A stretch of 64,000 bases of DNA from Deltaproteobacteria bacterium (GCA_031396695.1 JANNLG010000091.1:3632-67631), one strand, 5' to 3'; counted from the stretch's first letter, positions 3,834 to 26,404 are shown. The notes: generated from the letters alone by a model not told the origin. Numbers and translations are program-made.

Positions 3834-5066
3834 TCAGACCTCGAGAATCGTCACGCACATCGCCGCCGCGTCGCTGCCGACGTTGCCGCCGCCGTTGTGC
3901 GCCAGGCCGACACGTGCGCCGTCGACCTGGCGCGAGCTCGAGCGGCCCTGAAGCTGCTCGGTGAGCTCGACGATCTGCGCGAGGCCGGTCGCGCCGACCG
4001 GATGTCCCTTGCGCAGGAGCCCGCCCGAGGTGTTCACGGGAATGCGCCCGCCCAGGCGCGTCGCCCCTTCGTCCAGCAGCTTCCCGCCATCGCCCTTCGC
4101 GCACAGGCCGAGTGACTCGTAGGCCAGTATCTCGGCCGGCGCCGAGGCGTCGTGACACTCGATCACGCTGAGCTCGCCGGGGCCGATGCCCGCCTCCTCG
4201 TACGCCTCGCGGGACGTGAGCTCGACGGTGCCGGGTTCGTCGACGCCGTGGTCCCAGCCCGAGCGAAGCACGGACGAAACGATGCGGACGGGCTTGCGGA
4301 TGCCGAGCTCGCGCGCCTTTCGCTCGCTCACGATCACCGCCGCGGCCGCGCCGTCGCCGATCGGCGAGCACATCGGCCGCGTCAGGGGCTCTGCGATCAT
4401 CGGCGCCGCGAGCACGTCCTCGACGCTGAGCACGTCGCGGAACTGCGCGCGCGGGTTCTGGCTACCGTGCCGCGAGTTCTTGGCCGCGACCTCCGCGAAC
4501 TGCTGCACGGTCGTGCCGTAGCGCCGCATGTGCGCGCGCGCCGCGGCCGCATAGATGTCCATGAACATCGAGCGGCTCTCGCCCGAGCCGCTCGAGGCGC
4601 TCTTCGCGCCTGTGTCGGCGGCGCTCTGCTGCAGCGACGCGAGGATCGCCTGCAGCGCCTCGACATCGACCGCGCCGCTGAAGGCGGCGAAGCTCTTCCG
4701 CTTGTCGGCGTGGTAGAGCTTCTCGACTCCGAGCGCGAGCACCACGTCGTAGAGCCCCGCACTCACCATCGCCGCAGCCTGCTGCAACGCCGTCGACGCG
4801 CTCGCGCAGGCGTTCTCGACGTTCACCACAGGAATCCTGCCGATTCCGATCGAGCGCAGGATCACCTGGCCGCGGATCGACTCCTGGCCAGTGATCAAGC
4901 CGGCCGCGGCGTTGCCGACCCACGCCGCCTGCAGGTCCTTGGCCTCGATCCCGGCATCCGCGAGCGCGCCCTTCACGGCGCCGGCGCCGAGCGCCTTCAG
5001 CCCCAGGTCCAGGTGCTTGCCGAAGTTCGTCATGCCGACGCCTGCGACCACTGCCTTCATTCGCAT
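3834..5066 (-). CDS. Thiolase-family protein (SCP2/nsLTP-type acetyl-CoA C-acyltransferase)
   Basis: 410 aa. Catalytic Cys context VNVENACASASTAL and C-terminal NGGGN...AAMCVTILE. GGGAGGG RBS 6 nt before the ATG at 5066. Confidence 0.85.
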   Translation of the reverse strand: MRMKAVVAGVGMTNFGKHLDLGLKALGAGAVKGALADAGIEAKDLQAAWVGNAAAGLITGQESIRGQVILRSIGIGRIPVVNVENACASASTALQQAAAMVSAGLYDVVLALGVEKLYHADKRKSFAAFSGAVDVEALQAILASLQQSAADTGAKSASSGSGESRSMFMDIYAAAARAHMRRYGTTVQQFAEVAAKNSRHGSQNPRAQFRDVLSVEDVLAAPMIAEPLTRPMCSPIGDGAAAAVIVSERKARELGIRKPVRIVSSVLRSGWDHGVDEPGTVELTSREAYEEAGIGPGELSVIECHDASAPAEILAYESLGLCAKGDGGKLLDEGATRLGGRIPVNTSGGLLRKGHPVGATGLAQIVELTEQLQGRSSSRQVDGARVGLAHNGGGNVGSDAAAMCVTILEV

Positions 5067-5088
5067 CGGAGTCCCTCCCGGTGGGCGG

Positions 5089-5877
5089 TCACAACAGGCC
5101 GTGACCCTTGATCTCGAGCGCCTTCTGCAGGAAGTCGAGCTCCGCCTCTCGGTAAGGAAGCGGCGCCGTGGCCTGGAGCAGCCGATCGCGCTCGAGCTCC
5201 TCGACGACCTTCGCGTCGCGCGGAAACGCGCTGCCGTAGCGGTTCATGTGGAACAGGTCGCCGAACGGACGGCGCGGCCGCTGCCCGCCCGCGCGCGGAT
5301 CCTCGAGCGGGTAGCCGACCGTCTGCAGCAGCAGCACGCGGCAGGTCTCGGGCATGCCGAGCGAGGCGCGGATCTTGTCGCCGTTCGGTGTACCCAGGCA
5401 ACAGGTGCCGAGCCCCTGCTCGTACGCCATCAGCGTGGCCTGCGCGATGCCCTGGCCGCAGTCGACCTCCGTGAGGCCGGGCTCCTTCAGCTTGTCGCGC
5501 AAGCTCGCGAACACGGGGATGAGCTGGGTCTCGAGCGCCTGCTCCTTGCCCGCGCCGAAGCCGAGCGCGCCGGCCTTGAGCAGCTCGCGCAAGCGGTTCG
5601 CCTGGTCGTCGATCGCGTCGGTGTCCAGGTACCAGACGATCACGACCGGCGCGCGCCGGATCTGGAAGCCCGCGATCGGAGCGACGATCGCGTCGACCAC
5701 GTCCTTCGGCGCGGTGTCGCGAAACACGACCACCGCGCGCAGCGCGCTCACGTTGCCCCAGTGCGAGGCGAGCCGCGCCGCTTCGAGCATGCGCTGGATC
5801 TTCTCCGGCTCGACCGGCTGATACGGCCGCATGAAACGGATCGAGCGCCGATTGCCGATGACCTCGCGAAGCTCCAT
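5089..5877 (-). CDS. Nitroreductase-family protein (paralog of 18543..19325)
   Basis: 262 aa. N-terminal NRRSIRFM motif typical of FMN nitroreductases. Shares a roughly 60-aa C-terminal extension (GGQRPRxPF...RDAKVV.ELE...APLP) with the second copy. Confidence 0.85.
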   Translation of the reverse strand: MELREVIGNRRSIRFMRPYQPVEPEKIQRMLEAARLASHWGNVSALRAVVVFRDTAPKDVVDAIVAPIAGFQIRRAPVVIVWYLDTDAIDDQANRLRELLKAGALGFGAGKEQALETQLIPVFASLRDKLKEPGLTEVDCGQGIAQATLMAYEQGLGTCCLGTPNGDKIRASLGMPETCRVLLLQTVGYPLEDPRAGGQRPRRPFGDLFHMNRYGSAFPRDAKVVEELERDRLLQATAPLPYREAELDFLQKALEIKGHGLL

Positions 5878-5913
5878 GACATTTCCTCCTTGCTCTCGTC
5901 TCGAGCGCTCGTC

Positions 5914-7119
5914 CTAGAGGCGGGTCGCGCCGACCAGCCCCAGTACCTCGTTGCAGCCGTCCTCGATCATCGATGCGCGCGCGTCGCGCACCAGCTTCTC
6001 GATCGGGTATTCGCGCGTCAGGCCGTTGCCGCCGAAGATCTGCAGCGCCTCGCTCGAGACCTCGAAGGCGGTCTGCGTGACGAAGGTCTTCGAGGCGATC
6101 GAGTAGTGCAGCAGCGGCGGGTTCGTGGCGTTGTAGAGCGCCACGCGCCGCGCCAGCGCGCGCGCGGCTTCGACGCGCGCGAACATCTTGAACAGCCGCG
6201 AGCGCACGCTCTGGTGCTGAAAAATCGGCACGCCGCCCTGCACGCGCTCCTTCGCATAGGAGACCGCGAGCTCGAGCGCCGCCTGCGCAACGCCCACGAA
6301 GATCGCGCCCATCGACGCATTGGCCATCGTGAGCACCATCTCCACGACGGCGCCGTAGGCCTCCGAGCCGACGATCATGTACTCCTCGGGAATCCGTACG
6401 TCGTCGAAGAAGATCTCGCCCTGATTCAGCGCGCGCTGGCCGATCTTGTCGAGCGGCTTGCCCCGCGACACACCCGGCAGATCGAGCGGTACGAGACATA
6501 CGCCGCCACCGTGGAAGCCGTGGCTCGGGTCGATGGTGCAGAACAGCGTCGCAACAGTGGCGATCGTGCCGTTCGAGACCCAAGCGGCCTTCTGGCCGCG
6601 GATCACCCACTCCTTCCCGTCCTTGCGCGCGACACAGTTCGGTTTCAGGTTGGGATCGCGGAAGTGCGGCTCACTGATCGCCAGCGAATCGCTTCCGTGG
6701 TCCGGCTCCGTGACGGCCCAGCAGCCGATCTCGTGCGCGGACTCGTCGCAGAAACGCTCGACCAGCGCGGGCCGCCCGGACATGCGCGCGAAGATCCGGT
6801 GGAAGCTCGCGACCCCGAGACTGATCGCCAGGCCCGAGTCGCCGCGGCCCATCTCCTCGCTCACCAGGCAGCGCACACGTGCCGCGTCGCCCGGAGCGAG
6901 GTCGCTGCCGCTCGATTCGAGCTGATCGAGTCCGAGCTCGCGCGACTTCTCGAACACGCGCCACAGCGTCGACTCGGGCGCGATCACCTGTGCCGGATCG
7001 GACAAGCGATCGAGCGCGATCCCGGCCGGCCGCAGCACCTCGTCGGCGAATTTTCGCGCGGTGTCGCGGATCGCCTTCTGCTCGTCGCTGAGTCCGACCT
7101 CGATGTCCGTGATCGCCAT
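5914..7119 (-). CDS. Acyl-CoA dehydrogenase
   Basis: ACAD fold motifs (CWAVTEPDHGSD, QIFGGNG..EYPIEK..RDA). Start moved to the internal ATG at 7119 (MAITDIEV...), which has a GGGAGG RBS 6 nt upstream. 401 aa. Confidence 0.9.
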   Translation of the reverse strand: MAITDIEVGLSDEQKAIRDTARKFADEVLRPAGIALDRLSDPAQVIAPESTLWRVFEKSRELGLDQLESSGSDLAPGDAARVRCLVSEEMGRGDSGLAISLGVASFHRIFARMSGRPALVERFCDESAHEIGCWAVTEPDHGSDSLAISEPHFRDPNLKPNCVARKDGKEWVIRGQKAAWVSNGTIATVATLFCTIDPSHGFHGGGVCLVPLDLPGVSRGKPLDKIGQRALNQGEIFFDDVRIPEEYMIVGSEAYGAVVEMVLTMANASMGAIFVGVAQAALELAVSYAKERVQGGVPIFQHQSVRSRLFKMFARVEAARALARRVALYNATNPPLLHYSIASKTFVTQTAFEVSSEALQIFGGNGLTREYPIEKLVRDARASMIEDGCNEVLGLVGATRL

Positions 7120-7177
7120 GACCGGCCTCCCAGTTCGGATCGATGACCGCAACGTACGGACCCACGCGATGCGCCGG

Positions 7178-7193
7178 TATGACCGGCGTCATA
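7178..7193. promoter_or_regulatory. Perfect palindrome TATGAC-CGGC-GTCATA, candidate Crp/Fnr-family operator (copy 1 of 5)
   Basis: Read directly. Centre is 66.5 bp upstream of the ACAD ATG (7119). A TACGTT (TAnnnT) hexamer lies 21 nt downstream of the site on the minus strand, the geometry of a class II (-41.5) activator site. The site overlaps the stop codon of the Crp/Fnr gene. Confidence 0.7.
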
Positions 7194-7878
7194 TGGACCG
7201 CGAATCGCTCGCGGACTCTCCGTTCGCGACCTGCTCGAGCGCTACGCGATCGAGCAGGCGGATCCAGCCCACTCCGCCCTCGATCCAGCCCGCGCGCTCG
7301 AAGCCGCGCAGCACGCGGATGGCCGTCTCGACGGTCGTGCCGGCCGCTTCACCCAGGATCCGGCGCTTCGTCACGAGCCGCTGTCCCTCCGGTGCTTCGA
7401 GCAGCACTCGCGCCATGCGCGCGGTGACGGTGTCACTCGCGAACGAGCACAGCCGGTCGTGCGCATGCTGCAGACGCTCCGCCACGATCGAGAGCAGACC
7501 TCGGGCGATGCCGGGATCCTCCGCCAGGAACGTCTGCACCACGCGACGCGGTACCCGCCACGCCTCGCCCGGCACGACGCCCTGCGCGGACTCCGCGTGA
7601 CTCGCCCCGGACGTCAGCGCCGCGAGTCCGAACAAGTCACCGATCTGGAGGCGCTCGAGCTCGATCGCCCGTCCCGAAGCGTGGCTCTTCAGCGTGCGCA
7701 GCTCGCCGTTGCCGACGGCGAACATGTACTCCGCCGCCGCCGATTCGAAGTACAGGTACTCGCCCTCGCGGAACGGAATCGAGCGCACGTGAGGTCTGAG
7801 ACGGGGCATCCGCGCCGGTCCGAGCAGCCGGAACAGCGCGGTTTCCTCGAGCGGTCGCGGCTTCGCAGGGGCCTGCAT
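7189..7878 (-). CDS. Crp/Fnr-family transcriptional regulator (no FNR-type Cys cluster)
   Basis: 229 aa. Has a cNMP-binding-like beta-roll plus a C-terminal HTH (GTTVETAIRVLRGFERAGWI) resembling the FNR recognition helix TVETISR. Contains only one Cys. Confidence 0.9.
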   Translation of the reverse strand: MQAPAKPRPLEETALFRLLGPARMPRLRPHVRSIPFREGEYLYFESAAAEYMFAVGNGELRTLKSHASGRAIELERLQIGDLFGLAALTSGASHAESAQGVVPGEAWRVPRRVVQTFLAEDPGIARGLLSIVAERLQHAHDRLCSFASDTVTARMARVLLEAPEGQRLVTKRRILGEAAGTTVETAIRVLRGFERAGWIEGGVGWIRLLDRVALEQVANGESASDSRSI

Positions 7879-7948
7879 CTCAGACTGTCCCCGAGCTGCA
7901 CTGAGGCAGAGCGCCCTGTGCGGGGCAATTCGGCACGGCGACGGGATG

Positions 7949-7964
7949 TATGACCTTCGTCATA
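7949..7964. promoter_or_regulatory. Perfect palindrome TATGAC-CTTC-GTCATA (copy 2 of 5)
   Basis: Lies in the divergent gap between the Crp/Fnr gene (ATG 7878) and the hemerythrin-like gene (ATG 8010). Suggests autoregulation. Confidence 0.7.
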
Positions 7965-8009
7965 GACGCTCCGCCCGCTGATTTTGCATGTTCGGTGCCG
8001 GAGGTAGCG

Positions 8010-8420
8010 ATGTCAGCGCACGCGACGTCGAATCCCATGATCCGCTGGTGGCAGGAGCACAGTGAGCTCGACGGCCTGGTCGAGGTCGTGGTCGAGGCGC
8101 TCGGCGGGGGCGCGATCGACTCCGCGGGCGAGTCGCTCGAGGATCTCGCAAGAGCGCTAGAGGCGCACTTCGAGCTCGAGGAGACAGCCTACTTCCCGCT
8201 GGTCGAGCGCCTCTCGCCCGACCAGCGCGCAGCGGTCGATGCGGCGCGGGTCGGTCACAGAAACATCCGCGAGCGACTCGAGGCTCTACTCACGCTCGTC
8301 GCGACCGGAGACTTGCGCGCCGCACGGGCGGCGTTCGACGTCCTGCTCGAGCGCTTCCGCACCCACGAAGCCGAAGAGGGCAAGTTGATCGCGCGGCTCG
8401 AGGCACTCGCCACCAGCTAG
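8010..8420 (+). CDS. Hemerythrin-like (HHE cation-binding) domain protein
   Basis: 136 aa from the internal ATG at 8010 (GGAGG at 8000-8004). Repeated H/E metal-ligand spacing (EHSELD, HFELEE, GHRNIRE, THEAEE) in a four-helix pattern. Confidence 0.7.
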   Translation: MSAHATSNPMIRWWQEHSELDGLVEVVVEALGGGAIDSAGESLEDLARALEAHFELEETAYFPLVERLSPDQRAAVDAARVGHRNIRERLEALLTLVATGDLRAARAAFDVLLERFRTHEAEEGKLIARLEALATS

Positions 8421-9754
8421 GGCGCGGGTCGGACGAAGTTGTTCATCCAATAGATGAACAGGCCCGTCAGCGCGACGTAGAGCCAGATGGGATAGCTGAT
8501 CCGCACGAGCCGCCGGTGCTCGGCGAAGCGCTCGCCAAGCGCGAGCTGCAACGTGCGCGCGACCAGCGGCACGACGGCGACGGCGAGCACGGTGTGAGTG
8601 GTCAGCACGGCGAGGAAGAAGGTTCGCAGCCAGTCGTCACCCGGAAAGCGGCGATGCCCGGCGAGACCGGTCTGCAGCACGTACAGCACCACGAAGAGCG
8701 CTCCGAGCGACACCGCCGAGAGCATCAGGCGTCGGTGCACCTCGCGCTGGCCGCGCCGGATCGCCACCAGCGCGGCAATCAAGAGCGCCGTGATCGCCGC
8801 GTTCAGCGCGCCGTTCAGGTGCGGCAGTAGCTCGCGTGGGCTCATCTCGACTCCTCGGGCTCCGAGCTCTAGGAGCATCGCGCCAAACAGACTCGAGAGG
8901 TAGAGCAGTGAGACGACGAACACGCGCCGATCGCCTGCGGCGCTGCGAGTGCGCACGGCCGCTGCGATCGAGCCCACGAACGCGATTCCGCCCGCGAGGG
9001 CGATGCTCGCGTAGCCGGCGCCGAGTACGCCGCCGGCGACCGGAAGCAGAGTCACGGGAATCAGCGCCAGCGCGAAGGCGAGCATGAAGCGACGAGTGAC
9101 TTGATCTCCGGCCACGGAGGGAAGCATGCGGAACGACGCCGCCTCGTACTCCTCGCGCCGGTACAGCGCGATCGCGAACACGTGCGGCGGTTGCCAGACC
9201 AGCACGATCGCGGCGAGCGCGATCCCCCACGGGCTGACGCGGCCGTCGACGGCGGCATCGGCGATCAACGGTGCAGTGCAGCCGGCGAACGCGCCCACCA
9301 GCGTGTTCCAGGCGCTGCGCGGCTTCAGCCAGATCGTGTAGACGAGCAGATAGTGCGCGAGCGTCGCCGCGCCGATCGCCGCGGGCAGCCAGCCACCGAC
9401 GGCGAAGAGCGCCAGCAGTCCGGCGACCGACGTCGCCATCCCGAAGGCCAGCGCGCGTCGAACCGGCAGCCGGCCGCTCGGCAGCGGGCGTGCGCGCGTT
9501 CGCTCCATGCGGGCGTCCGCGTCGCGCTCCCAGCACGCGTTGAGCGCGCTCGATCCCGCGCCGACGAGCGCGACTCCGAGCAGCGCGCCGAGCACCGTCG
9601 TCAGGTCGGGAAGTGCCGGCTGACCGAGCACGAACGCCGGCAGTGCGGTCAGCAGCACGCCGAGCAGCACGCCCGGACGCGTCAGGTCGAGATAGTCGCG
9701 CGCGCCCGATGTGCGCGGTGCGAGAGTCGCGACCTGCTGAGCGCTCGACGTCAT
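8417..9754 (-). CDS. ctaB: Protoheme IX farnesyltransferase (heme O synthase) fused to a DUF420 (CtaM-like) membrane domain
   Basis: 445 aa. The N-terminal ~290 aa is a UbiA-type prenyltransferase with CtaB/CyoE-like loops (NACWERDADARMERTRARPLP). The C-terminal ~150 aa (LPHLNGALNA...HRRLM...THTVLA...HRRLVRISYPIWLYVALTG) matches the DUF420 pattern. Confidence 0.85.
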   Translation of the reverse strand: MTSSAQQVATLAPRTSGARDYLDLTRPGVLLGVLLTALPAFVLGQPALPDLTTVLGALLGVALVGAGSSALNACWERDADARMERTRARPLPSGRLPVRRALAFGMATSVAGLLALFAVGGWLPAAIGAATLAHYLLVYTIWLKPRSAWNTLVGAFAGCTAPLIADAAVDGRVSPWGIALAAIVLVWQPPHVFAIALYRREEYEAASFRMLPSVAGDQVTRRFMLAFALALIPVTLLPVAGGVLGAGYASIALAGGIAFVGSIAAAVRTRSAAGDRRVFVVSLLYLSSLFGAMLLELGARGVEMSPRELLPHLNGALNAAITALLIAALVAIRRGQREVHRRLMLSAVSLGALFVVLYVLQTGLAGHRRFPGDDWLRTFFLAVLTTHTVLAVAVVPLVARTLQLALGERFAEHRRLVRISYPIWLYVALTGLFIYWMNNFVRPAP

Positions 9755-9764
9755 CCGGTCTCTC

Positions 9765-11852
9765 CTAGTGCAGGGTGAAGCCCGACGCGCGGTCGAACGC
9801 GATCACCCGCCGGGCTCGCTCGTCGAACGCGATGGACTGCTCGCTCGTGTGGGCCCACTCGTCGTCGTGGGTATCACCGATCTCCACGCGCACGAGGTGC
9901 TCTCCCGCAGGGACCGAGAGCGGCGCGACGGCGACGCTGGCGCCGTCGTTCCAGATGCCCTCGGGCGCGAAGCTCTCGTCGACCACTCGCGCACCGTCCA
10001 CGCTGACGCGCAGGCGAACCGGGGCGCGGCCCCGCTCGCACACCTCCGCCTGTCGCATGTGTCTGGGCAGACGTTCGAGCTCTTCCTCGCTGCGCGTGCG
10101 ACACACGTCGCTCTGTCGACCGGGGTGCTTGAACGTGACCACGAGCTCGGCGCCCGGCGCAGCAGGCGCGGTATAGCCCCAATCGCTGACAACGCCGATG
10201 ATCGCGCTGACGAGCAGCGCCAGAGCGACGGACCCCACGCCCGCCAGCGCGCGCGGTGGCTCCACAGTGGCTGGCCGTGGACGGTCTGCGAGCATTCGCG
10301 CGGCCGCGCGCACAAGCTCGGACTTGCGGGTCCGGTCGAGCCAGACGACCTCGATCCGCTCACGCACCTCGTGCTGCACACGCAGCGCCGGCCCACGCGT
10401 CCCGTCGAGCCGCTGGCCGAGAAACTCGGGCCCCTCGCGAAAGTGACACGATCCGGGCGGGCAGCTCACGATCAGCACCTGCTTCGCGCCGCGCCGCAGC
10501 GCCCGCTCGATCGACATCGCGTGGACCCAGCCCGCACACGGACCCGCCTGAACCCGCCAGCCGGGCAGCTCCGCACACAGCCCCGTCTTCGGGTCGATCT
10601 CGAGCGCACCTCCCGCCGACTGCGCGCAGACGAACGCGACGCCTGGCTGCTCGCCGTCCTGTCGTGCATGCTCGAGCCACGACGCGACGCGCTTGCGCTG
10701 TTCCAGCAGCGGGAACGCGGGCAGATCCGTGCCGATCGAATTGCACGAAGCCACGCAGATCCCGCACGCGACGCACTTCGCCGGGTCGACACGCGCCTCG
10801 AGCGCGTAGCTCTCGCGGCGGACCGGCTCCTCGCGTGTGACCATCGAGATCGCCTCGTACGGGCAGTCCTGGTAGCACTGCTCGCAAGCGTTGCAGCGCG
10901 CGGGGTCGACGGCCGCGCTCCGCGGCGCGCGCTTGCGCAGCGACCACGGCACCGCGCCGACCAGAGCGCCGCCGACGAGACACACGGTCCAGACCGCTCC
11001 GCCCGACAGCCGCTGGCCGAGCGCGAGCGGAAACAGGTACCACCAATCCATGCTGAACGACTCCGCGCGCGCGGTCATCTGCGCGCGCTCGGCGCTCGCG
11101 GCGGGATACGCGACCGAGAGCAGCGCGAGCGATCCCAGCACCCAGATCGTCATCGGAGCGCGCGTCAGGAAGCGCGCCCGCGCCGTGCGAGTCAGGTGCA
11201 GCCAGAGCAAGAACGCGAGCGCGAGAGGAACGAGCATGTGGAAGAAGAACACCACGAAGAACAACAGCGAGTTGATGCCCTCGTCGAACAGGAACGAGCG
11301 GCCCATCGGATCCGCGAAGATCGGCAGCGCGTCGAGCGCCTTCGCCGTCTCGATCGCCACGTATTTCCCGCGCACGTCCCAGACCAGCCAGTAACCGGTC
11401 CAGCCGAGCAGCCAGAGCACGCCAAGCGACAGCACGCCGGTCACCCACGCGACCCAGCGCGCGCCGCTGAAGCGTCTCTCGAAGAACAGCCGCAGCGCGT
11501 GCACCAGTCCGAAGAAGATGCACGCGTCGGAGCTGTAGCGGTGCAGCGAGCGCAAGAATCCCGCGCTCCACGGAGCGCTCGACATCGCGGCGACCGAGTC
11601 GTAGGCGAGGTACACGCTCGGGCGGTACCAGAACAGAAGCAGCACGCCCGTGACCGTGGCGACGAAGAGAGCGGTCAGCGCGACCGCCCCGGTCTGCAAG
11701 AACGGATTCAGCGCGTCGGGAAGCGCGCGCCCGAGCACGCGATCGAAGCCGAGGAACGAACGCTCGAGCAGACGCAGCGCGGCCTCCCCGCGGACCGATG
11801 CCTCGCCACCGTGCGCGGCCTCACCGGCCAGCCCGGCGCCTTCAGCCGCCAT
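9765..11852 (-). CDS. Fusion protein: di-heme cytochrome b (bc1/b6 N-terminal type) + 2x[4Fe-4S] ferredoxin + MvhD/FlpD-like domain + TM + C-terminal beta-rich domain
   Basis: 695 aa. Two His pairs on predicted helices (SLHRYSSDACIFFGLVHALR and FFFHMLVPLALAFLLWLHL). CNACEQCYQDCP and CVACGICVASCN cluster motifs. MvhD-like VAFVCAQS...GPCAGWV...VLIVSCPPGSCHFREG. Confidence 0.8.
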   Translation of the reverse strand: MAAEGAGLAGEAAHGGEASVRGEAALRLLERSFLGFDRVLGRALPDALNPFLQTGAVALTALFVATVTGVLLLFWYRPSVYLAYDSVAAMSSAPWSAGFLRSLHRYSSDACIFFGLVHALRLFFERRFSGARWVAWVTGVLSLGVLWLLGWTGYWLVWDVRGKYVAIETAKALDALPIFADPMGRSFLFDEGINSLLFFVVFFFHMLVPLALAFLLWLHLTRTARARFLTRAPMTIWVLGSLALLSVAYPAASAERAQMTARAESFSMDWWYLFPLALGQRLSGGAVWTVCLVGGALVGAVPWSLRKRAPRSAAVDPARCNACEQCYQDCPYEAISMVTREEPVRRESYALEARVDPAKCVACGICVASCNSIGTDLPAFPLLEQRKRVASWLEHARQDGEQPGVAFVCAQSAGGALEIDPKTGLCAELPGWRVQAGPCAGWVHAMSIERALRRGAKQVLIVSCPPGSCHFREGPEFLGQRLDGTRGPALRVQHEVRERIEVVWLDRTRKSELVRAAARMLADRPRPATVEPPRALAGVGSVALALLVSAIIGVVSDWGYTAPAAPGAELVVTFKHPGRQSDVCRTRSEEELERLPRHMRQAEVCERGRAPVRLRVSVDGARVVDESFAPEGIWNDGASVAVAPLSVPAGEHLVRVEIGDTHDDEWAHTSEQSIAFDERARRVIAFDRASGFTLH

Positions 11853-12777
11853 CGGGCTTCTCCCGCAGGAGAAGCTCCAGCGCCGAGCTCAGCCAGCGCT
11901 GCTGCCGCTCACCCAGCGTGAGTCGATAGGCGATGCGCCCGTCCCGGTCGACGAGGAGAAAGAGATTCGCGTGATCGATCACGCCGGTCTCGGGATCGCG
12001 GGTGCGCGCGATGCCCATGTCGTCGAGCACGCGCTCGACCTCGGTCGGCTCGCCGGTGACGAGCGCATAGAGCGGCGCCTCGATCTGGTGACTGCGCGCG
12101 AGCGCCGCGAGCACGTCTGGCGTGTCGTGCGCCGGATCCATGCTGACGGCGATCACGCGCAGATCGCCGCGCAGCTCCGCGGGCACCGCCGCGATCGCCG
12201 CCTTGGTCTGACCGAAAATCAGCGGACAGCTCAGCGGGCACGACGAGTACACGGCAGTCAGCAGCACGACCTTGCCCCGCAGTGCTTCGAGATCCAACGT
12301 GACTCCGTCCTGATTCACGAGCCGCAGAACGGGCGAGTGGAGCTGCGTGCGCAGCGCCTCGGCCGGGAACGTCAGCTGATCTCCCTCGGGCTCGCGACCG
12401 AGCGCCGTGAAGGAGATGGCGGCAATCGCGACGAAGAGAGCGCTCGATAGACATGGCCACACCCACGCGCGGCGTTGTGCCGCCAGCGCGCGCAACGGCT
12501 GCCACCAGAACAGCGCGATGACCGGAGCGATCACGGCCGGCGGTCCCATCATGGCCATCACGTAGCCCGGATTCAGACGGCCCGTCGCGGGGTCGTAGCC
12601 GAAGCACCAGATCCGGAACTCGTCCGCGAACCCGCCCATGCTCGTCTCACCTCCCGGGCTGAACAGCATCACGAGCAGCAGCAGCTCCCAGAACACGAGC
12701 ACGCCGAGCGCGAATGCGGGAAAGCCGCCGCCGTCGAAGAAGCGTTCGGCGTCCGCGCGGGCGTCGAGGGTGGTCAT
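11842..12777 (-). CDS. SCO1/SenC-family copper chaperone with extended N-terminal membrane region
   Basis: 311 aa from the ATG at 12777, which forms an ATGA overlap with the subunit I stop. Thioredoxin-fold CxxxC copper motif (SSCPLSCPLIF) and a downstream conserved His (D.AH.DTP-type region). The 669-aa ORF in the track is an artefactual N-terminal extension. Confidence 0.8.
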   Translation of the reverse strand: MTTLDARADAERFFDGGGFPAFALGVLVFWELLLLVMLFSPGGETSMGGFADEFRIWCFGYDPATGRLNPGYVMAMMGPPAVIAPVIALFWWQPLRALAAQRRAWVWPCLSSALFVAIAAISFTALGREPEGDQLTFPAEALRTQLHSPVLRLVNQDGVTLDLEALRGKVVLLTAVYSSCPLSCPLIFGQTKAAIAAVPAELRGDLRVIAVSMDPAHDTPDVLAALARSHQIEAPLYALVTGEPTEVERVLDDMGIARTRDPETGVIDHANLFLLVDRDGRIAYRLTLGERQQRWLSSALELLLREKPDGG

Positions 12778-14525
12778 CGCACGTGCCACACGTCTGCGAG
12801 CCATAGCCAGTTCGCGAAGTAGTAGACCGCGAACGAAAGCAGGAACACGAGCACCAGCACGAGCGTTCCCGGCGTGCGCTCGTCCTCGCCACCCGAACCC
12901 GGCGCCGGCTGGATCGCGGCGGCCGCGCGGCGATCGACGTGCCAGGCCGTCATCGGCTGGCCCGCGTTGGAGCGACCGAAGAACACGGCCGCGACCACCA
13001 GCGCGATGAACAGGAACAGCCCCAGGAAGGCGATCACCGACCCGACCCCGAGCAGCCCCAACATGACGTGCGCGCCGGAGTCGAAGCCCGCCGAGAACTG
13101 TGCGCCGCTGAACTCGACATCCCAGTGACGGCGCGGGACGCCGTAGGACCCGGCGAACGACATGCCGATCGCCATGGTCGTGATGCCGATGCCGAACAGG
13201 TACGGCTGGATCCTGCACCAGGTCCTCGCGTAGAACTCGCGCTGGAAGATCAGCGGGACGAGGTAGTAGGTCAGCGCCATGAACGCGAGCGTCGTGCCGC
13301 CGACTACGGTGACGTGGAAGTGACCCGGGATGCGCAGCGTGTTGTGCGCCATGATGTTGATCTGCTGCGTGCCGAGCACGACCCCGGTGATCCCGCCGCC
13401 GAAACCGAAGATCACGAGCGACAGGAAGAAGCCGGAGAATCCGGGATTCGACCACGGCGCGTTGGCGAGCCAGCCGAACAGCCCGCGCCCGAAGCCCTTC
13501 CCCCGCATCGCCACCTCGATCGACGCCGGCACCGTGAAGCCGTGGATCATCGATGCCAGGACGGCGAGATACATCGCGTAGGAGGTGTTCCAGATCTTCC
13601 ACGCCGCGCCGACGCCCGGATCGACCAGGATATGGTGCGCCGAGGCGAGGTTGATGAACAGGATGTAGAGCACGAAGGCGCCGCGGCAGACCGCCTGCGA
13701 GATCGGCTTCGCACCCACGGTCAATGCGCCGAGCAGGTACCAGACCGAGACCATCGCGCATACGTTCACCTGCTGAGACATGTGACCCAGTCCCCACCAG
13801 GTCACTCGATACCAACCGGGGTCGATCGCCGGCAGCACTCCGACCGACCACAGGAACGTCGGGATCATCACCACCGCGCCGTGCAAGAGCGTCACGACCG
13901 CGATGATCGCGGCCGCGGTGGCGCCGAACACGACCAGCGGCACGGAGCCCTCGTAGGTGTGGTCGCGCTTCGCGATGTAGAGCGTGCAGAAGAAGTTGAT
14001 CACGGCCACCAGCGCTCCGACCGCGAACAGGATGATGCCCAGGTAGAACAGCGGGTGCGCGACCAGCGGCGCGTACGACGTCATCAGCACGTCCGCCTTG
14101 CCGATCAGAATGGTGGCGTTGAACATGACCGCGCCGGCGAGCATCAGCGCGAATGCGATCCAGGCCAGCGCCACCGAATAGAGTCGGCTGTTGAGCAGGA
14201 CCGTCCCCGCGAAGTAGAGGATCGCGATCTCGAAGTTCAGGATCATCACGATCAGCATGTCGAGGCCGTGCAGCGTGAGAACGCGGTAGTACCAGTCCGC
14301 GGGAAGCAGATGCACCGCCGGCCAGCGCGTGAGACCGAGCAGGATGGCTCCCACGCCGCCGATCAGCAGGAACACGACGGCTGTGACCGCGTGCAGCTTC
14401 ATGAAGCGCTGCGCCGTGAGACAGACCGGCAGCCCGGTCGTGTCGCAGGCGCGGACCACTCCGGTCGGGTGATTTCCATGTGCCTCCGTCGGGATCGTGT
14501 CGCCGGGGATCGTCGTAGTCGTCAT
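12774..14525 (-). CDS. Heme-copper oxidase superfamily subunit I (B-family-like, canonical cross-link Tyr absent)
   Basis: 583 aa with about 12+ TM segments. Helix VI WWGLGHMSQQV (CuB His, but Gln at His+4). Helix VII SAHHILV (CuB HH). Helix X PGHFHVTVVGGT (heme ligands). Helix II LTLHGLDM. Confidence 0.85.
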   Translation of the reverse strand: MTTTTIPGDTIPTEAHGNHPTGVVRACDTTGLPVCLTAQRFMKLHAVTAVVFLLIGGVGAILLGLTRWPAVHLLPADWYYRVLTLHGLDMLIVMILNFEIAILYFAGTVLLNSRLYSVALAWIAFALMLAGAVMFNATILIGKADVLMTSYAPLVAHPLFYLGIILFAVGALVAVINFFCTLYIAKRDHTYEGSVPLVVFGATAAAIIAVVTLLHGAVVMIPTFLWSVGVLPAIDPGWYRVTWWGLGHMSQQVNVCAMVSVWYLLGALTVGAKPISQAVCRGAFVLYILFINLASAHHILVDPGVGAAWKIWNTSYAMYLAVLASMIHGFTVPASIEVAMRGKGFGRGLFGWLANAPWSNPGFSGFFLSLVIFGFGGGITGVVLGTQQINIMAHNTLRIPGHFHVTVVGGTTLAFMALTYYLVPLIFQREFYARTWCRIQPYLFGIGITTMAIGMSFAGSYGVPRRHWDVEFSGAQFSAGFDSGAHVMLGLLGVGSVIAFLGLFLFIALVVAAVFFGRSNAGQPMTAWHVDRRAAAAIQPAPGSGGEDERTPGTLVLVLVFLLSFAVYYFANWLWLADVWHVR

Positions 14526-14529
14526 CGCG

Positions 14530-15057
14530 CTACTCCTCGACCAGGATGCGTCCGGCCATCAGGTGGTGGCCGATGCCGCAGAACTCGTTGCAGATGATCG
14601 TGAACTCACCCGAGCTCGTCGGAGTCAGGGTGAGCACGTGGTCGTAGCCCGGCAGGATCTGGAAGTTCATGTTCAATGGCTGCAGCGAGAAGCCGTGCTG
14701 CAGGTCGATCGACGAGATGTGTACGCGGTAGGTCTGATCCTTCTTGAGCTTCAGGACCGGAAACCACGACCACATCTGCGCCTGCAGATAGGCGTCTCCT
14801 CCGGGCGCGGGCTGCACGATCGGGATGCCGTTCAGCTCCCCGACTTGGTTCGTGGACACGAAGCGCGCCACGCGCTGGGCGAACTCCGCGGGCGTGACCC
14901 GGTACGCCTCGCCGGTGCTGTTCTGCTTGCCGTAGAAGTGCCAGTACGGCATTGCGACGAACATCACGAGGCACCAGCTCATCGCGAGGCCGACCCAGAG
15001 TCTCTCCGCTCCGTGCGGCGCCTTGAACCAGCCCGCCGGCGGTGGATGAATGCTCAT
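14530..15057 (-). CDS. Heme-copper oxidase subunit II with complete CuA site (single TM, ba3-like size)
   Basis: 175 aa with one N-terminal TM and a cupredoxin domain. CuA ligand pattern: H in DLQHGFSL, and CNEFCGIGHHLM (C-x-E-x-C-G-x2-H-x2-M). Confidence 0.85.
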   Translation of the reverse strand: MSIHPPPAGWFKAPHGAERLWVGLAMSWCLVMFVAMPYWHFYGKQNSTGEAYRVTPAEFAQRVARFVSTNQVGELNGIPIVQPAPGGDAYLQAQMWSWFPVLKLKKDQTYRVHISSIDLQHGFSLQPLNMNFQILPGYDHVLTLTPTSSGEFTIICNEFCGIGHHLMAGRILVEE

Positions 15058-15072: not shown

Positions 15073-15228
15073 TCACGGCAACGTCGCGGGCGCCAGGTAG
15101 TACAGCTCGACCCATGCCCAAAGCGTGTACGAGACGATCGGGATCAACACCCCGAGCGCGAGCAGCAGCCACGGATTGTCCATGAGTCTCTGCAGCGGGT
15201 GGACGTAGCCCGAGTCACTTCGCGCCAT
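15073..15228 (-). CDS. Small single-TM membrane protein (oxidase accessory subunit candidate)
   Basis: 51 aa from the ATG at 15228 with a GAGGAGG RBS. One hydrophobic helix (PWLLLALGVLIPIVSYTLWAWV). Position is analogous to the small subunits of ba3/cbb3 oxidases. Confidence 0.5.
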   Translation of the reverse strand: MARSDSGYVHPLQRLMDNPWLLLALGVLIPIVSYTLWAWVELYYLAPATLP

Positions 15229-16666
15229 AGTCGAACCTCCTCGACCCGGCCAGCGCACCCGCCGCCGGAGTGACCGATTCGCGACTCAGCCAGGCGGACC
15301 CGACGACCGCGATGAACAAGATGCCTCCGGCGATCGAGGCGAAGCCGCCTAGCCCCATCAGGCCCAGACCCAACGTCTCGGCGACACCGCGAGCCGCCTG
15401 CTCCGCGCCGTAGATCTTGCGCCCCATGCCGTGCGCGCCCGCGAGCGCGAAGCCGGCCGCCAGCACCAGCATCCCGGCGCCATACACCGCGGGCTGCCAG
15501 ACGACCGCGCGGCGCATTCCACTGCTCGAGATCCCGAGACCGAACGACGGCAGCAGCAGGTAGCTCGCCGCCATGAATGCGAGCGTGATCGCCCCGACCG
15601 ACGCGTGATAGTGCGCGGGGACCATCGTGCTCTGGCCGCGAATCGCCGCGCCGAGCCCGAAGCCCACCGCGGTCAGGACTGCACTCACGAGAAACGCGGA
15701 GATGCGCGGGTCCGCGAGCGACGCGGCGGAGATCGCGCCCGCACGCCATGCACGCACGACGGCCGTCGTGCACAAGATCAGGAAGATCGTGACGACCGGG
15801 AAGATGCACCAGCGCATCAGCTCGGTGTATCCGACCTGGTAGCCCGCCGTGTGGGTGCCCGCGAGCGCGAACACAGGCGCGAACAGCCACGGCAGAAGAA
15901 GCGCGACGAATAGCCAGCGCGCCGCGAGCGCGCTCACCGGGGCCGCGCCGAGCGCGGACTCGAGCAGCCACAGCCAAAGCGAGAGCATGGCGAGCGTGCA
16001 CACGAGCTGCAGCACGTGCCCGATTCCCCAGACCAGCAGGTCGGCGTACACGTCGGGTTGGAGACCGCCTGGCGCGCGCAGCCAGGTGAATGCGAGCGTG
16101 AGCGCGGCGAGCAGCAGCGCCGCGCGCGCCGTGCGCAGGCCGCTGACCACGCCCGCCGGCATGTCGATGGCGACCAGGCGCGCCGCGCCCGCGCGCCGAT
16201 CGGGCAGAAAGCGGGAATCGACGAAGCTGGCGAGTACGCCGAATCCGAACACCAGCTGACCCGCCTGGAAGATCCAGTGATCCACTGTCGGGATGTAGTT
16301 CGAGAGCAACGGAGGCGCGCCGGGAATCCCGGCTCCGACGAGCTGCAGCGCGATCCCCGCACCCGCGACGTGAACCGAGTGCCGCGCGAGCCACCCGGCG
16401 CGTCCGCGCGCCGGCAGCAGGAAGAAGAGCGAAGCCAGGATCGAGTAGAACCAGGCGACCAACGCCAGGTTGACGTGCGCGACCAGACAGCGCTTGAAGA
16501 AGACCGGGTCGGTCACGAAGCGATCGAAGGGAGGCATGCGTCCCAGAACCACGGCAAGCGCGAACAATCCGGCGAGCACGAGCACGATCAGCGACATTCC
16601 CAGCCAGCGCCGAGAAGCGAGTCGAAGTTCCGAGGTGTCGCTGCTCGTGCTAGCCGTTGAGGACAT
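15215..16666 (-). CDS. Divergent heme-copper-oxidase subunit I-like membrane protein lacking the helix VII His-His pair
   Basis: 483 aa, polytopic. Clear local similarity to the neighbouring subunit I (LVWGIGHVLQLV vs WWGLGHMSQQV; VPAHYHASVGAITLAFMAASYLLLP vs IPGHFHVTVVGGTTLAFMALTYYLVP). No HH motif, only GTHTAG. Confidence 0.7.
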   Translation of the reverse strand: MSSTASTSSDTSELRLASRRWLGMSLIVLVLAGLFALAVVLGRMPPFDRFVTDPVFFKRCLVAHVNLALVAWFYSILASLFFLLPARGRAGWLARHSVHVAGAGIALQLVGAGIPGAPPLLSNYIPTVDHWIFQAGQLVFGFGVLASFVDSRFLPDRRAGAARLVAIDMPAGVVSGLRTARAALLLAALTLAFTWLRAPGGLQPDVYADLLVWGIGHVLQLVCTLAMLSLWLWLLESALGAAPVSALAARWLFVALLLPWLFAPVFALAGTHTAGYQVGYTELMRWCIFPVVTIFLILCTTAVVRAWRAGAISAASLADPRISAFLVSAVLTAVGFGLGAAIRGQSTMVPAHYHASVGAITLAFMAASYLLLPSFGLGISSSGMRRAVVWQPAVYGAGMLVLAAGFALAGAHGMGRKIYGAEQAARGVAETLGLGLMGLGGFASIAGGILFIAVVGSAWLSRESVTPAAGALAGSRRFDYGAK

Positions 16667-17085: not shown

Positions 17086-18438
17086 TCAGGCCGCCCGCAG
17101 CGCCCGCGCGCGCCGCGCGTGCCACTTCTCCAGGTGGCGTCGGTGCCGTTCGGTGTAGGCCCCGTCCTGGTAGTGCGTGTCGTAGAAGTCGCAATCGATG
17201 TGCTGCGCCTGCACCATCACCGTCAGCAGGCAGGGATCGACGAGCGCCGGCAAGCGTCCCCACTTGCGCCAGACCGCGCGCAAGACGTCCTTCGTGCACT
17301 GCACGATCACCGGGTCCGTGCGCGGGATGGCGACCTCCATCTGGCCCGGACGCTTGTACGGAGCGTTCTCCGCGTTCGCGGGATGGAAGATCCCCGTCGG
17401 ACCCCACTTGCGCTCGATCAGATCGTCGACCGCGTCGTCGATCGAGCCGCCGTAGTAGTACGGGTGGTGCGTCTCGAAGACACCGTCTTTCCCGATCGGG
17501 TACGGGAAGCCCGCGAGCGGACCGTGATCCGCGGTCTCGAAGCGGAAGCCGAGGCCTCGACACAGAGGTGTGCCGCCGAGCGCCATCATCGCGTTGAAGC
17601 CGCCAAACGGCCAGCCTCCGAGTCCGAGCGCCGATTCCACCAGCAGCAGGTTCTGCGCCATGAAGCCGACCTCGACGTTGCACGCGCCGAAGGCGACCAG
17701 CGGCTCGAGACTCTGGTACGGCACCGGAATCGTCGCCAGCCCCTGCTTCACCCACTTCTCGCAGCCGAGCGGCGTCATGCCGTCATCGGCGTCCACCGGA
17801 TAGTTGCCCTGCTCGATGAACAGCATCAGCCCGTTGATCAGCTCCGCGGTCACGTCGCAGACCGGCATGAAGAGCGTCGTGCCGGGCTGGTTCGCGTTCC
17901 AGGTGTTGAACGACATGAACGCGGGCGAAGAGTGCGGCAGGTCGATGCGCTCGCTCGAGATCTGCACGCGCCGGTCCGCGAACACGGAGACTAGCTGATC
18001 GAGATCGTCCATGCGCGCGATCTCCTGCATGCGCTCGGGGTGCGTGCCGCGGATCTTCACGACGTAAGTGCCCTCGTCGTTCGTGTAGAACAGCTCCGTG
18101 CCGTGCGAGCCACAGGGACTCGGAAAGGTGCGGCCCGAGTACTCGAGCATGGTGTTGCAGTTGCCGTCCCAGGCCTCACCGGGCGCGAGCTCCTCCTTCC
18201 GCGTGTGCGGCATGTCCGCGAGGTTCGTGCCGGACATGCCCGTCGCGGCCATGCACAAGAGCGCCTCCTCCTCGAAGGAGAGCGGCAGCGGCTGCGCCTG
18301 CGACTTGAATGCGTTGGGTCCGTGACGGATCTCCATGCCCAGTCCGAAGCGGCGTGAGCGCCGTGTGAAGATCGACTCGAAGAGTGGCGTCGACCAAGCC
18401 TCTTCGAGCAGCTTGCGGGTCTCGGGATCCATCGCCAT
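17086..18438 (-). CDS. Large nitroreductase-superfamily-like protein (450 aa, function unknown)
   Basis: Start at the ATG at 18438 (MAMDPE...), with GAGGAGGAA 6 nt upstream. N-terminal TRRSRRFGLG and mid-protein GFMAQNLLLVESALGLGGWPFGG resemble nitroreductase FMN-fold motifs. The domain assignment is tentative. Confidence 0.7.
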   Translation of the reverse strand: MAMDPETRKLLEEAWSTPLFESIFTRRSRRFGLGMEIRHGPNAFKSQAQPLPLSFEEEALLCMAATGMSGTNLADMPHTRKEELAPGEAWDGNCNTMLEYSGRTFPSPCGSHGTELFYTNDEGTYVVKIRGTHPERMQEIARMDDLDQLVSVFADRRVQISSERIDLPHSSPAFMSFNTWNANQPGTTLFMPVCDVTAELINGLMLFIEQGNYPVDADDGMTPLGCEKWVKQGLATIPVPYQSLEPLVAFGACNVEVGFMAQNLLLVESALGLGGWPFGGFNAMMALGGTPLCRGLGFRFETADHGPLAGFPYPIGKDGVFETHHPYYYGGSIDDAVDDLIERKWGPTGIFHPANAENAPYKRPGQMEVAIPRTDPVIVQCTKDVLRAVWRKWGRLPALVDPCLLTVMVQAQHIDCDFYDTHYQDGAYTERHRRHLEKWHARRARALRAA

Positions 18439-18492
18439 GGCAGGTTCCTCCTCGCGCTGGCTGCAAAGAGAACAGGCGCGCCGAGCGGCAGC

Positions 18493-18508
18493 TATGACGG
18501 CGGTCATA
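18493..18508. promoter_or_regulatory. Perfect palindrome TATGAC-GGCG-GTCATA (copy 3 of 5)
   Basis: Lies in the divergent gap. Centre is 62.5 bp from the 450-aa gene ATG (18438) and 42.5 bp from the nitroreductase ATG (18543). Confidence 0.7.
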
Positions 18509-18542
18509 AGCCGGGGGATTGCGCCCGGCTAGTGTCGTGTTG

Positions 18543-20750: not shown

Positions 20751-20805
20751 GCTGCTCCCTGTCTGCCGTCTCGTCACAGCATCGGCGACGCCATGGCTGG
20801 GCGGC

Positions 20806-25620: not shown

Positions 25621-25655
25621 GGATTTGGAGGCTATGGGCGCGGCCGTCGCACGCC

Positions 25656-25671
25656 TATGACAGCCGTCATA
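25656..25671. promoter_or_regulatory. Perfect palindrome TATGAC-AGCC-GTCATA (copy 5 of 5)
   Basis: Lies in the divergent gap. Centre is 66.5 bp from the gamma-subunit ATG (25730) and 43.5 bp from the cytochrome b ATG (25620). CAGATT lies 21 nt downstream toward the molybdoenzyme operon. Confidence 0.7.
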
Positions 25672-25729
25672 ACCACGCGTCGCGCCGCAAGGCAGATTCT
25701 CGAGCAGAGACTGACTCGGAGGCCGGACG

Positions 25730-26401: not shown

Positions 26402-26404
26402 GCG

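Follow-up and report, generated by a model that had tools for sequence, protein, structure and literature searches.

Electron-transfer modules of the NarI-NarH, HdrE-HdrD and QmoC type combine a quinol site at the p-side of the membrane with two stacked b hemes and a chain of cytoplasmic iron-sulfur (Fe-S) clusters, an arrangement that constitutes one half of a redox loop. The membrane proteins NosR, NapGH and NosGH, which carry two [4Fe-4S] clusters on the cytoplasmic side, are dedicated to denitrification enzymes that face the periplasm; to our knowledge, NosR and NapH possess no hemes. Here we analyze a gene (positions 9765-11852, minus strand) located on a stretch of 64,000 nucleotides of DNA from a Deltaproteobacteria bacterium (GCA_031396695.1, JANNLG010000091.1:3632-67631; this whole stretch is referred to below as the window). 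Its 695-amino acid product joins a cytochrome b, two [4Fe-4S] motifs, an MvhD-like domain and a predicted periplasmic β-sandwich in a single polypeptide chain, and it very probably acts as a partner of the predicted eNOR-type nitric oxide (NO) reductase that is encoded next to it.

The closest counterpart in the literature comes from Ferrigenium straubiae, whose eNOR operon is described in the accessible text of a preprint (bioRxiv 10.64898/2026.01.22.701106, May 2026) as comprising genes for eNOR II and eNOR I, a heme O synthase, sco1 and a 'scaffold protein of unknown function'. The same text draws attention to two 'rather unusual' genes that are considered possible Ferrigenium markers; the product of one combines cytochrome b, [Fe-S], FAD- and NADH-binding domains, that of the other a cytochrome b with [Fe-S]. 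Partial similarity of the cytochrome b to chain C of bc1 is reported there, as is the detection of the proteins in the proteome of a denitrifying Fe(II)-oxidizing culture, and the authors hypothesize that a quinol:NAD+ oxidoreductase operates in a supercomplex in which the reduction of NO is coupled to that of NAD+. Likened to these genes by their description only, the window protein fits both in its architecture and in its eNOR-operon context, but it has no NADH- or FAD-binding part; neither an MvhD domain nor a periplasmic module is mentioned for the Ferrigenium genes in the part of the preprint that is accessible. A sequence-only reading of the window had pointed out that MvhD/FlpD domains usually go together with heterodisulfide reductases or hydrogenases and not with bc-type cytochromes b; the idea that the combination is unprecedented is weakened by these cytochrome b/[Fe-S] genes. 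One protein in which cytochrome b6 is joined to DMSOR-beta-like and FlpD domains (RME88945.1, see below) appears, uncommented, in a table of PMC8756737, the accessible parts of the eNOR reference paper mention no cytochrome b or ferredoxin partner, and a literature search combining heme-copper, cytochrome b and MvhD yielded no paper. The family has been noticed once before; its generality, its MvhD domain and its periplasmic subunit appear to be undescribed in the literature found.

Domain Architecture of the Cytochrome b/Fe-S Protein

The gene and its segments are as follows (aa, amino acid residues; TM7, transmembrane helix 7).

9765-11852, minus strand: whole gene with ATG start, encoding cytochrome b, two [4Fe-4S] motifs, MvhD, TM7 and β-sandwich; 695 aa
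11187-11726, minus strand: bc/b6-type cytochrome b core, helices A-D, aa 43-222 (Pfam PF00033, cytochrome b6 matches in the PDB, Foldseek)
10938-11159, minus strand: helices E and F with the p-side ef loop, aa 232-305 (Foldseek alignments, conservation of D269)
10737-10916, minus strand: cytoplasmic ferredoxin domain with two [4Fe-4S] motifs, aa 313-372 (Pfam, match to the HdrA2 cassette, Cys conservation)
10293-10640, minus strand: MvhD/FlpD-like domain, aa 405-520, with the presumed [2Fe-2S] ligands C409, C439, C464 and C469 (PF02662, alignment to MvhD chains)
10185-10253, minus strand: TM7 membrane anchor, aa 534-556 (hydropathy and AlphaFold model)
9768-10184, minus strand: predicted periplasmic β-sandwich, aa 557-695 (fold search, profile search, Cys co-variation)

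All Pfam domains scored above their curated cut-offs: Cytochrome_B (PF00033) matched aa 43-221 with 59.7 bits (cut-off 27.2), 4Fe-4S dicluster families matched aa 313-372 (e.g., Fer4_7 with 31.7 bits versus a cut-off of 27), and FlpD (PF02662) matched aa 405-520 with 43.6 bits (cut-off 22.3). The cytochrome b and MvhD assignments made in the sequence-only reading both passed this domain search, and the domain order given there (cytochrome b, further transmembrane segments, two ferredoxin clusters, MvhD, another transmembrane segment and a β-rich domain) was borne out with all motifs present. NCBIfam returned sub-threshold matches only, the best of which were to a b-type cytochrome (ExtP), cytochrome b6 and the HdrA2 cassette; in this last match, aa 310-515 resemble the C-terminal ferredoxin-MvhD cassette of HdrA2 with 67.6 bits. 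The nearest solved structures by sequence are cytochrome b6 (E 2.5e-19), followed by bc1 cytochrome b, the ferredoxin domains of FwdF/HdrA, and MvhD.

Two His pairs with 13 residues between their members (H104/H118 and H205/H219) are present on helices B and D and are predicted to provide the bis-His ligation of two b hemes; by position, H104/H205 correspond to the p-side heme and H118/H219 to the n-side heme. The ferredoxin domain contains two CxxCxxCxxxCP motifs (C320/323/326/330 and C360/363/366/370), and the four Cys residues of the MvhD-like domain align with those of the solved MvhD chains 9sw2_D, 9sfi_K and 8rvu_F. In the ef loop, the equivalent of the PEWY motif reads M-D269-W-W-Y, so that the Asp is located one position off the canonical Glu. 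The position of Cys35 in b6 is taken by a Gln; therefore, no heme cn is expected in the fusion protein.

An AlphaFold model of the fusion (83 homologs as input; pLDDT 88, pTM 0.85) and hydropathy together delineate helices A-F, a cytoplasmic α/β region (aa 306-533), TM7 and an all-β region (aa 557-695). When the whole model was used in a Foldseek search, only the cytochrome b part found matches; cytochrome b6 was recovered at a TM score of 0.7, and the alignments with bc1 cytochrome b span 290-350 columns, and hence include helices E and F in the likeness. By homology with the b6/bc1 topology, the N-terminus and the Fe-S domains would lie in the cytoplasm and the last domain in the periplasm. 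The same topology had been proposed earlier for the protein, and it agrees with hydropathy, with the AlphaFold model and with a co-varying Cys pair in the last domain.

The fusion shares the fold of helices A-F, the four His residues, the cd and ef loops at the p-side and an acidic residue at the PEWY-equivalent position (here an Asp shifted by one position) with cytochrome b6 plus subunit IV and with bc1 cytochrome b, and like these it has a periplasmic β-domain partner anchored by a single transmembrane helix, which resembles the Rieske protein in topology. In contrast to the b6f and bc1 complexes, the fusion system lacks a Rieske protein as well as cytochrome c1 or f, its periplasmic partner has neither the motifs nor the fold of a Rieske protein, the Cys for heme cn is missing, and the n-side is capped by the fused Fe-S module instead of presenting an open Qi site. 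The HdrA2 cassette and the MvhD protein of the Mvh-Hdr system are matched by aa 310-515 with all four Cys aligned, but in the fusion this cassette is tethered to a membrane cytochrome b, and no genes for an HdrA flavoprotein, HdrBC or a hydrogenase are present in the window or in the related loci. While the overall logic is that of the NarI, HdrE and QmoC modules, the cytochromes b of these modules belong to the NarI/HdrE family and that of the fusion to the bc/b6 family; moreover, the former pass their electrons to a cytoplasmic catalytic subunit from a neighboring gene, and no such gene lies beside the fusion. The membrane layout with two [4Fe-4S] clusters is shared with NosR, NapGH and NosGH, and NosGH-like genes even lie beside the cluster in one locus (L023); neither an FMN_bind domain, as in NosR, nor a NapH-type CX3CP membrane domain was detected in the fusion by Pfam at E<=1.

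The C-Terminal β-Sandwich is a Universal Second Subunit

Residues C584 and C605 of the window protein bracket a loop with the sequence P-x-H598-M599-R600. Across the family, the two Cys residues are either both present or both absent, and the His-Met-Arg (HMR) loop persists when they are missing; this pattern points most likely to a disulfide bond that staples the loop, as expected for an extracytoplasmic domain. Among the long forms of the protein, H598, M599, D636 and H652 are conserved to 75-91%, and are thus too variable for an obligate metal site.

The family members of more distant loci have about 510-590 aa only and end without TM7 and the β-sandwich. A profile built from aa 530-695 of window-type proteins identified a separate open reading frame (ORF) directly downstream of the short gene (E 4e-24 in L073, E 1e-19 in L079), the product of which possesses an N-terminal transmembrane helix and the same C...P-x-H-M-R...C motif. 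In total, the module is fused in 48 loci, split off in 21 (about 30%) and missing in 10, all of which end at a contig edge. Hence, the C-terminal domain, which had been regarded as an extra of this one protein in the sequence-only reading, is a universal second subunit that is either fused or encoded by the next gene.

No Pfam family was found for the module even at E<=10, and no fold match in the PDB at E<1e-3; the best hits were generic Ig-like sandwiches with a TM score of about 0.4. A role as a Rieske substitute was rejected, given that the module has no CxH...CxxH boxes, that no Rieske structure occurs among its 50 best PDB matches and that a Pfam match is lacking. A cupredoxin or a PCuAC-like copper chaperone was likewise rejected on the basis of missing fold and profile matches, a ligand motif that is not invariant, and a Cys pair that behaves as a disulfide.

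Size of the Family and Conservation of its Ligands

A word-indexed database search with the fusion protein gave 1001 matches; the 120 listed are nearly all full length (~700 aa, 51-82% identity), and the full-length proteins among them have the same Pfam architecture. An exhaustive search of representatives clustered at 50% identity retrieved 403 clusters at E<=1e-30, and colinearity is still seen in matches of ~27% identity. The family spans at least seven phyla, and its named members all derive from metagenome-assembled genomes, namely those of Myxococcota/'Deltaproteobacteria', Verrucomicrobiota, Planctomycetota, Spirochaetota, Dadabacteria and Thermodesulfobacteriota. In the databases these proteins are annotated as 'ferredoxin', 'hydrogenase iron-sulfur subunit' or 'cytochrome b N-terminal domain-containing protein'; the second of these names, used by NCBI, is misleading because of the absence of Hdr and hydrogenase genes noted above.

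Conservation of the ligands was counted over an alignment of 197 family sequences. The four heme His residues are kept in every sequence that covers them, the eight ferredoxin Cys residues are essentially invariant, and D269 of the PEWY-equivalent is retained in 188 of the 197 proteins. Conservation of the p-side loops and of this Asp, together with the essentially invariant Fe-S Cys residues, indicates that selection acts on the transmembrane wire at either end. The first three Cys residues of the MvhD-like domain are conserved to ~95% and the fourth to ~76%. All four have been lost in two orthologs from Verrucomicrobiota (L016, positions 7911-10001; L019, positions 7956-10097), which also lack the C-terminal disulfide pair, but retain the hemes, both [4Fe-4S] motifs, the HMR loop and the synteny. 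The [2Fe-2S] cluster is therefore dispensable in that lineage of Verrucomicrobiota.

Fused c-type heme domains were absent among 269 sequences, where CxxCH strings occur only inside the first ferredoxin motif; variants with a fused heme c were consequently dismissed as proof of a periplasmic exit for electrons. The protein RME88945.1 mentioned above is listed in Table A3 of PMC8756737 with a c-type cytochrome 'C1' domain in addition to the cytochrome b6, DMSOR-beta-like and FlpD domains; judged from these domain names alone, it may be a variant of the family with a periplasmic heme c.

The Neighboring Heme-Copper Enzyme Carries the eNOR Signature

The fusion gene is part of a cluster on the minus strand with the gene order 483-aa membrane protein, 61-aa ORF, COX2, COX1, SCO1/SenC-like protein, fusion and CtaB-DUF420. 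Its other members are the following.

15215-16666, minus strand: degenerate paralog of heme-copper enzyme subunit I, 483 aa (BLASTP, synteny)
15073-15258, minus strand: 61-aa ORF with a single transmembrane segment between the paralog and COX2 (position shared with ORFs of 51-64 aa called in L021-L024)
14530-15057, minus strand: heme-copper enzyme subunit II (COX2) with a complete CuA site, H...CNEFCGIGHHLM (ligand motif)
12774-14525, minus strand: heme-copper enzyme subunit I (COX1) with the eNOR signature GHMSQQ and all six His ligands (alignment to ba3)
11842-12780, minus strand: SCO1/SenC-like protein with an N-terminal membrane extension (domain match, synteny)
8417-9754, minus strand: heme O synthase (UbiA/CtaB) fused to DUF420, 445 aa (domain matches)

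COX1 is closest to the ba3 oxidase of T. thermophilus (E 5e-45), with which all six metal-ligand His residues align. At the position of the cross-linked Tyr237 it carries a Gln (GHMSQQ versus GHPIVY in T. thermophilus ba3), the published diagnostic of eNOR; sNOR has an Asn and oxygen reductases have a Tyr at this site. Every COX1 protein linked to the fusion family contains GHxSQQ(V/I)NV in addition to the HH pair. COX2 possesses an intact CuA motif (H...CxExCx3Hx2M), and the ligands are kept in 94 of 94 subunit II orthologs; electrons must therefore enter eNOR from the p-side. The replacement of Tyr by Gln with retention of CuA places the system in the context of NO reduction and denitrification. 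According to the accessible literature, the eNOR of R. marinus, a heme As enzyme, has been shown biochemically to reduce NO and not O2, and is the only one for which such data exist. The neighboring 'oxidase' is an eNOR-signature enzyme and, as such, a predicted NO reductase. The link between the fusion and an adjoining heme-copper enzyme, suspected in the sequence-only reading, thus holds, but its interpretation as an ordinary oxidase does not, since the Gln signature marks eNOR.

The sNOR (norSY-senC-orf1) and bNOR (cbaCBA-senC-cbaD) systems resemble the cluster in that an NO reductase derived from the B family with a CuA subunit is followed by senC and a gene for a membrane protein. They differ in that their post-senC protein has ~190 aa and six transmembrane segments and that the diagnostic residue is Asn, whereas a 695-aa cytochrome b/Fe-S protein and a Gln are found here; for these reasons, an identity with norSY-senC-orf1 of sNOR was rejected.

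Linkage of the Fusion to eNOR Across Loci

When 20 GTDB loci that had been found through the fusion were searched by tblastn with the proteins of the window, the order paralog, COX2, COX1, SCO1, fusion and, usually, CtaB was recovered in Myxococcota, Planctomycetota and Verrucomicrobiota, and the linkage was also kept in two very distant family members (27-29% identity). As a control for selection bias, 80 metagenome loci were fetched through COX1-only patterns (GHxSQQ[VI]NV and AFM[GA][LV][TA]YY); this set represents the subunit I sequences closest to the query (at least 54% identity) and not the whole eNOR family. A gene of the fusion family is present in 56 of the 80 loci overall, in 44 of the 47 with at least 4.5 kb of sequence on one side, and in each of the 24 that are flanked on both sides by 4.5 kb or more. 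Among the 47, the three loci without a family gene (L054, L070 and L098) have no upstream sequence, the region in which short forms often lie on the opposite strand.

There is no gene for a Rieske protein or for cytochrome c1 or f in the conserved cluster or anywhere in the 64-kb window, and the conserved cluster contains no cytochrome c or cupredoxin gene either. The earlier proposal that the fusion serves the adjoining heme-copper enzyme without a Rieske/cytochrome c1 module is in line with these absences, with a synteny that extends down to 27% identity and with the linkage in 24 of 24 complete loci. We therefore consider it very probable that the protein is a partner of eNOR.

Other Genes of the Cluster and its Surroundings

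The 483-aa membrane protein has no Pfam or NCBIfam match, but is colinear over its full length with heme-copper subunit I (BLASTP E 2e-18, 26% identity). It keeps both heme-ligand positions (…AH… and PAHYH) and one CuB His (in GIGHVLQ); of the HH pair, only TH-T is left. The paralog lies upstream of COX2 in most related loci, with the ortholog in L023 having a precomputed COX1 match, and probably corresponds to what the 2026 preprint calls the 'eNOR scaffold protein of unknown function'. The 61-aa ORF may encode a small extra subunit similar to subunit IIa of ba3 oxidases. For the SCO1/SenC-like gene, the mechanically called ORF (11842-13851) overlaps COX1, so that the true start should be near position 12780; the N-terminal extension of its product comprises ~170 aa with several hydrophobic segments, and the protein is 306-313 aa long across loci. 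In L021, heme O synthase and DUF420 are encoded by separate, oppositely oriented genes. Two further genes adjoin the cluster in the window.

7950-8420, plus strand: hemerythrin-domain protein adjoining the cluster (domain match)
7189-7878, minus strand: Crp/Fnr-family regulator adjoining the cluster (domain match)

Beyond these lies a HemN-like gene. No nir or nos genes occur in the window. Two genes of the nitroreductase family flank the cluster at a distance (5089-5877, minus strand; 18519-19325, plus strand). Located between the cluster and an RND efflux operon (20855-25146) are a gene for a luciferase-like monooxygenase (19725-20777) and a 473-aa ORF (17086-18507) with a high GC content at third codon positions and no Pfam match. 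The flanking nitroreductase, monooxygenase and 473-aa genes are conserved with the cluster in the closest relative at most. A cytochrome b561/Ni_hydr_CYTB gene (25102-25620, minus strand) is found near a large molybdopterin oxidoreductase gene (26839-30273, plus strand) with a weak match to a Tat signal; the region 25102-30273 may encode another membrane-linked periplasmic redox system.

Denitrification Context and Candidates for a Cytoplasmic Partner

In three loci with divergent relatives of the fusion (L021, L022 and L023), the cluster adjoins nirS (Cytochrom_D1) and genes for NrfD, Fer4_11 and multiheme proteins resembling alternative complex III. An Rrf2 regulator gene lies beside the cluster in L023; nosZ follows the cluster in both L023 and L024, and L023 continues with cytochrome c, nosD, nosGH-like and nosF/nosY genes. 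A nirK-like gene adjoins the cluster in L025, another divergent locus. Within positions 4617-10121 of this locus, a NuoF-like gene with Complex1_51K, SLBB and NADH_4Fe-4S domains is enclosed by two cytochrome b/Fe-S/MvhD paralogs of 704 and 706 aa; a rhodanese gene and, on the other strand, a Rieske/cytochrome b/multiheme c cluster also adjoin. This layout resembles that of the Ferrigenium operon as described in the accessible text of the preprint.

The NuoF-like gene occurs in none of the 80 metagenome loci, and in L025 only among more than 100 loci; the flavoprotein was therefore rejected as a general partner. It is the one candidate for a cytoplasmic partner that came up in any locus. Nearby nitroreductase-like proteins had been put forward in the sequence-only reading as a cytoplasmic partner of the fusion, but their genes are syntenic in the closest relative (L001) only and occur in no other locus. 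The genes for acyl-CoA dehydrogenase, thiolase and AMP-ligase near the window's cluster are likewise syntenic in L001 only, and these, like the nitroreductase genes, are consequently not regarded as partners.

Proposed Mechanism and Alternative Explanations

We suggest, with a probability of roughly 0.4, that the fusion and its β-sandwich form a dedicated electron-transfer partner of eNOR, a Rieske-less analogue of complex III with branched quinol oxidation. The proposal builds on the two-heme transmembrane chain, on the p-side Qo-like pocket with the membrane-anchored β-sandwich and on the two [4Fe-4S] clusters, usually accompanied by a [2Fe-2S] cluster, that are recognizable at the n-side; the direction and the branching of the electron flow are our best guess. 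Quinol would be oxidized at the Qo-like site of the fusion, and one of its electrons would enter the high-potential branch to CuA and eNOR, with the β-sandwich as the adaptor through which the CuA domain would dock onto cytochrome b. The second electron of the quinol would cross the membrane via the two b hemes and pass through the Fe-S relay to a cytoplasmic acceptor, which might be NAD+ where a NuoF-like module exists, and ferredoxin or another partner elsewhere. A more specific version of this proposal, which we consider unlikely, is a quinone-based electron bifurcation in which the CuA domain, positioned by the β-sandwich, takes the place of the Rieske head at a Qo-type site, and the strongly exergonic reduction of NO pulls one electron and thereby drives the second one over the two b hemes and the Fe-S relay to a low-potential acceptor in the cytoplasm, NAD+ or ferredoxin.

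A number of observations weigh against branched quinol oxidation. The periplasmic domain shows no sign of a redox cofactor and matches neither a Rieske protein nor a cupredoxin in fold, so that a path for the first electron from the Qo-like site to CuA is not apparent. The canonical Glu of PEWY is replaced by a shifted Asp, and a conserved gene for a cytoplasmic acceptor is lacking, the NuoF-like gene being found in 1 of more than 100 loci. Since the MvhD ligands have been lost in the Verrucomicrobiota orthologs, docking of a partner through the [2Fe-2S] cluster cannot be universal. In their accessible parts, the reports on the purification of R. marinus eNOR mention no such partner, and the linkage in 24 of 24 loci pertains to a sample of subunit I sequences that are at least 54% identical to that of the window.

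Electrons could also run through the protein in the opposite direction. Cytoplasmic NAD(P)H, via a NuoF-like or other flavoprotein, or ferredoxin would then reduce the MvhD and ferredoxin clusters, from which electrons would pass over the n-side and the p-side heme to CuA, possibly with the help of a quinone bound at the Qo-like site; such a system would work as an NADH/ferredoxin:NO oxidoreductase that needs neither bc1 nor cytochrome c. The architecture is similar to that of di-heme conduits that carry electrons from the cytoplasm across the membrane, the ferredoxin-MvhD cassette, which matches the C-terminus of HdrA2, is known to relay electrons between proteins, and an NADH-binding, NuoF-like gene does lie between the two paralogs in L025. 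Furthermore, the cluster does not encode the p-side donor that eNOR requires, and the movement of electrons from the n-side to the p-side is favored by the membrane potential, as a matter of general bioenergetics. However, about 1.5 V would be wasted in this way, although the cluster sits in islands for respiratory denitrification, the conservation of helices E and F and of the Qo-like loop would go unexplained, and no conserved gene for a cytoplasmic donor was found. Moreover, spending NADH on NO makes little sense for an Fe(II)-oxidizing autotroph, an argument made in the accessible text of the Ferrigenium preprint. On balance, we regard this reversed electron flow as doubtful.

The constant presence of the assembly genes for SCO1 and heme O synthase beside the fusion brings to mind a maintenance or assembly factor akin to NosR and NapH, through which no catalytic flux would pass, and which would keep the redox state of CuA/CuB, of the active-site heme of eNOR or of SCO1, or would aid in cofactor insertion, with the His/Met loop handling copper. 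The general layout known from the NosR and NapH families and the conserved His-Met loop of the periplasmic β-sandwich accord with such a role, but similarity in sequence or fold to NosR, NapH, PCuAC or cupredoxins was not found, the His/Met/Asp/His motif is not invariant, and, for a chaperone, an entire bc-type cytochrome b including its Qo-like loop would be elaborate; we hold this explanation to be rather improbable. A plain quinol dehydrogenase that delivers both electrons to eNOR, with the Fe-S/MvhD module serving as a sensor of redox state or NO or as an electron buffer, would be the simplest way to connect a CuA enzyme to the quinone pool, and it would be compatible with MvhD ligands that are dispensable in some lineages and with the lack of a conserved cytoplasmic partner. 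Yet the eight [4Fe-4S] Cys residues and the ligands of the n-side heme are conserved, so that the transmembrane branch is apparently used, and a periplasmic cofactor that could accept both electrons is missing; we give little credence to this possibility. There is next to no chance that the gene is an artefact of two genes joined by a sequencing error, as was considered in the sequence-only reading, or that it is a chance neighbor of the oxidase. A frameshift error could in principle fuse the two parts, as the C-terminal module is separate in 21 loci, but a joining by error is ruled out by the homologs with the same architecture, which include 48 independent fused loci and more than 1000 database matches with a conserved length among those listed, and a chance proximity is at odds with the linkage to eNOR in all 24 complete loci.

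Significance

The reaction product of eNOR, N2O, is a greenhouse gas. Among NO reductases, eNOR is reported to be extremely common in nature, and its physiological electron donor is not named in the literature found. The two-part protein described here, a cytochrome b/Fe-S protein with a β-sandwich, is encoded at every complete eNOR-signature cluster examined, and is thus a candidate for the link between this enzyme and the respiratory chain. Its gene could serve as a marker to help tell eNOR clusters apart from those of oxygen reductases in metagenomes. If quinol is indeed oxidized without a Rieske protein and an electron is passed to cytoplasmic Fe-S clusters, the system would solve the complex III problem in a new way, and might also provide denitrification with a new step of energy conservation or bifurcation. 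Should electron bifurcation prove true, denitrification would directly yield a low-potential reductant together with proton-motive force, without the involvement of bc1, cytochrome c or a reverse-operating complex I.

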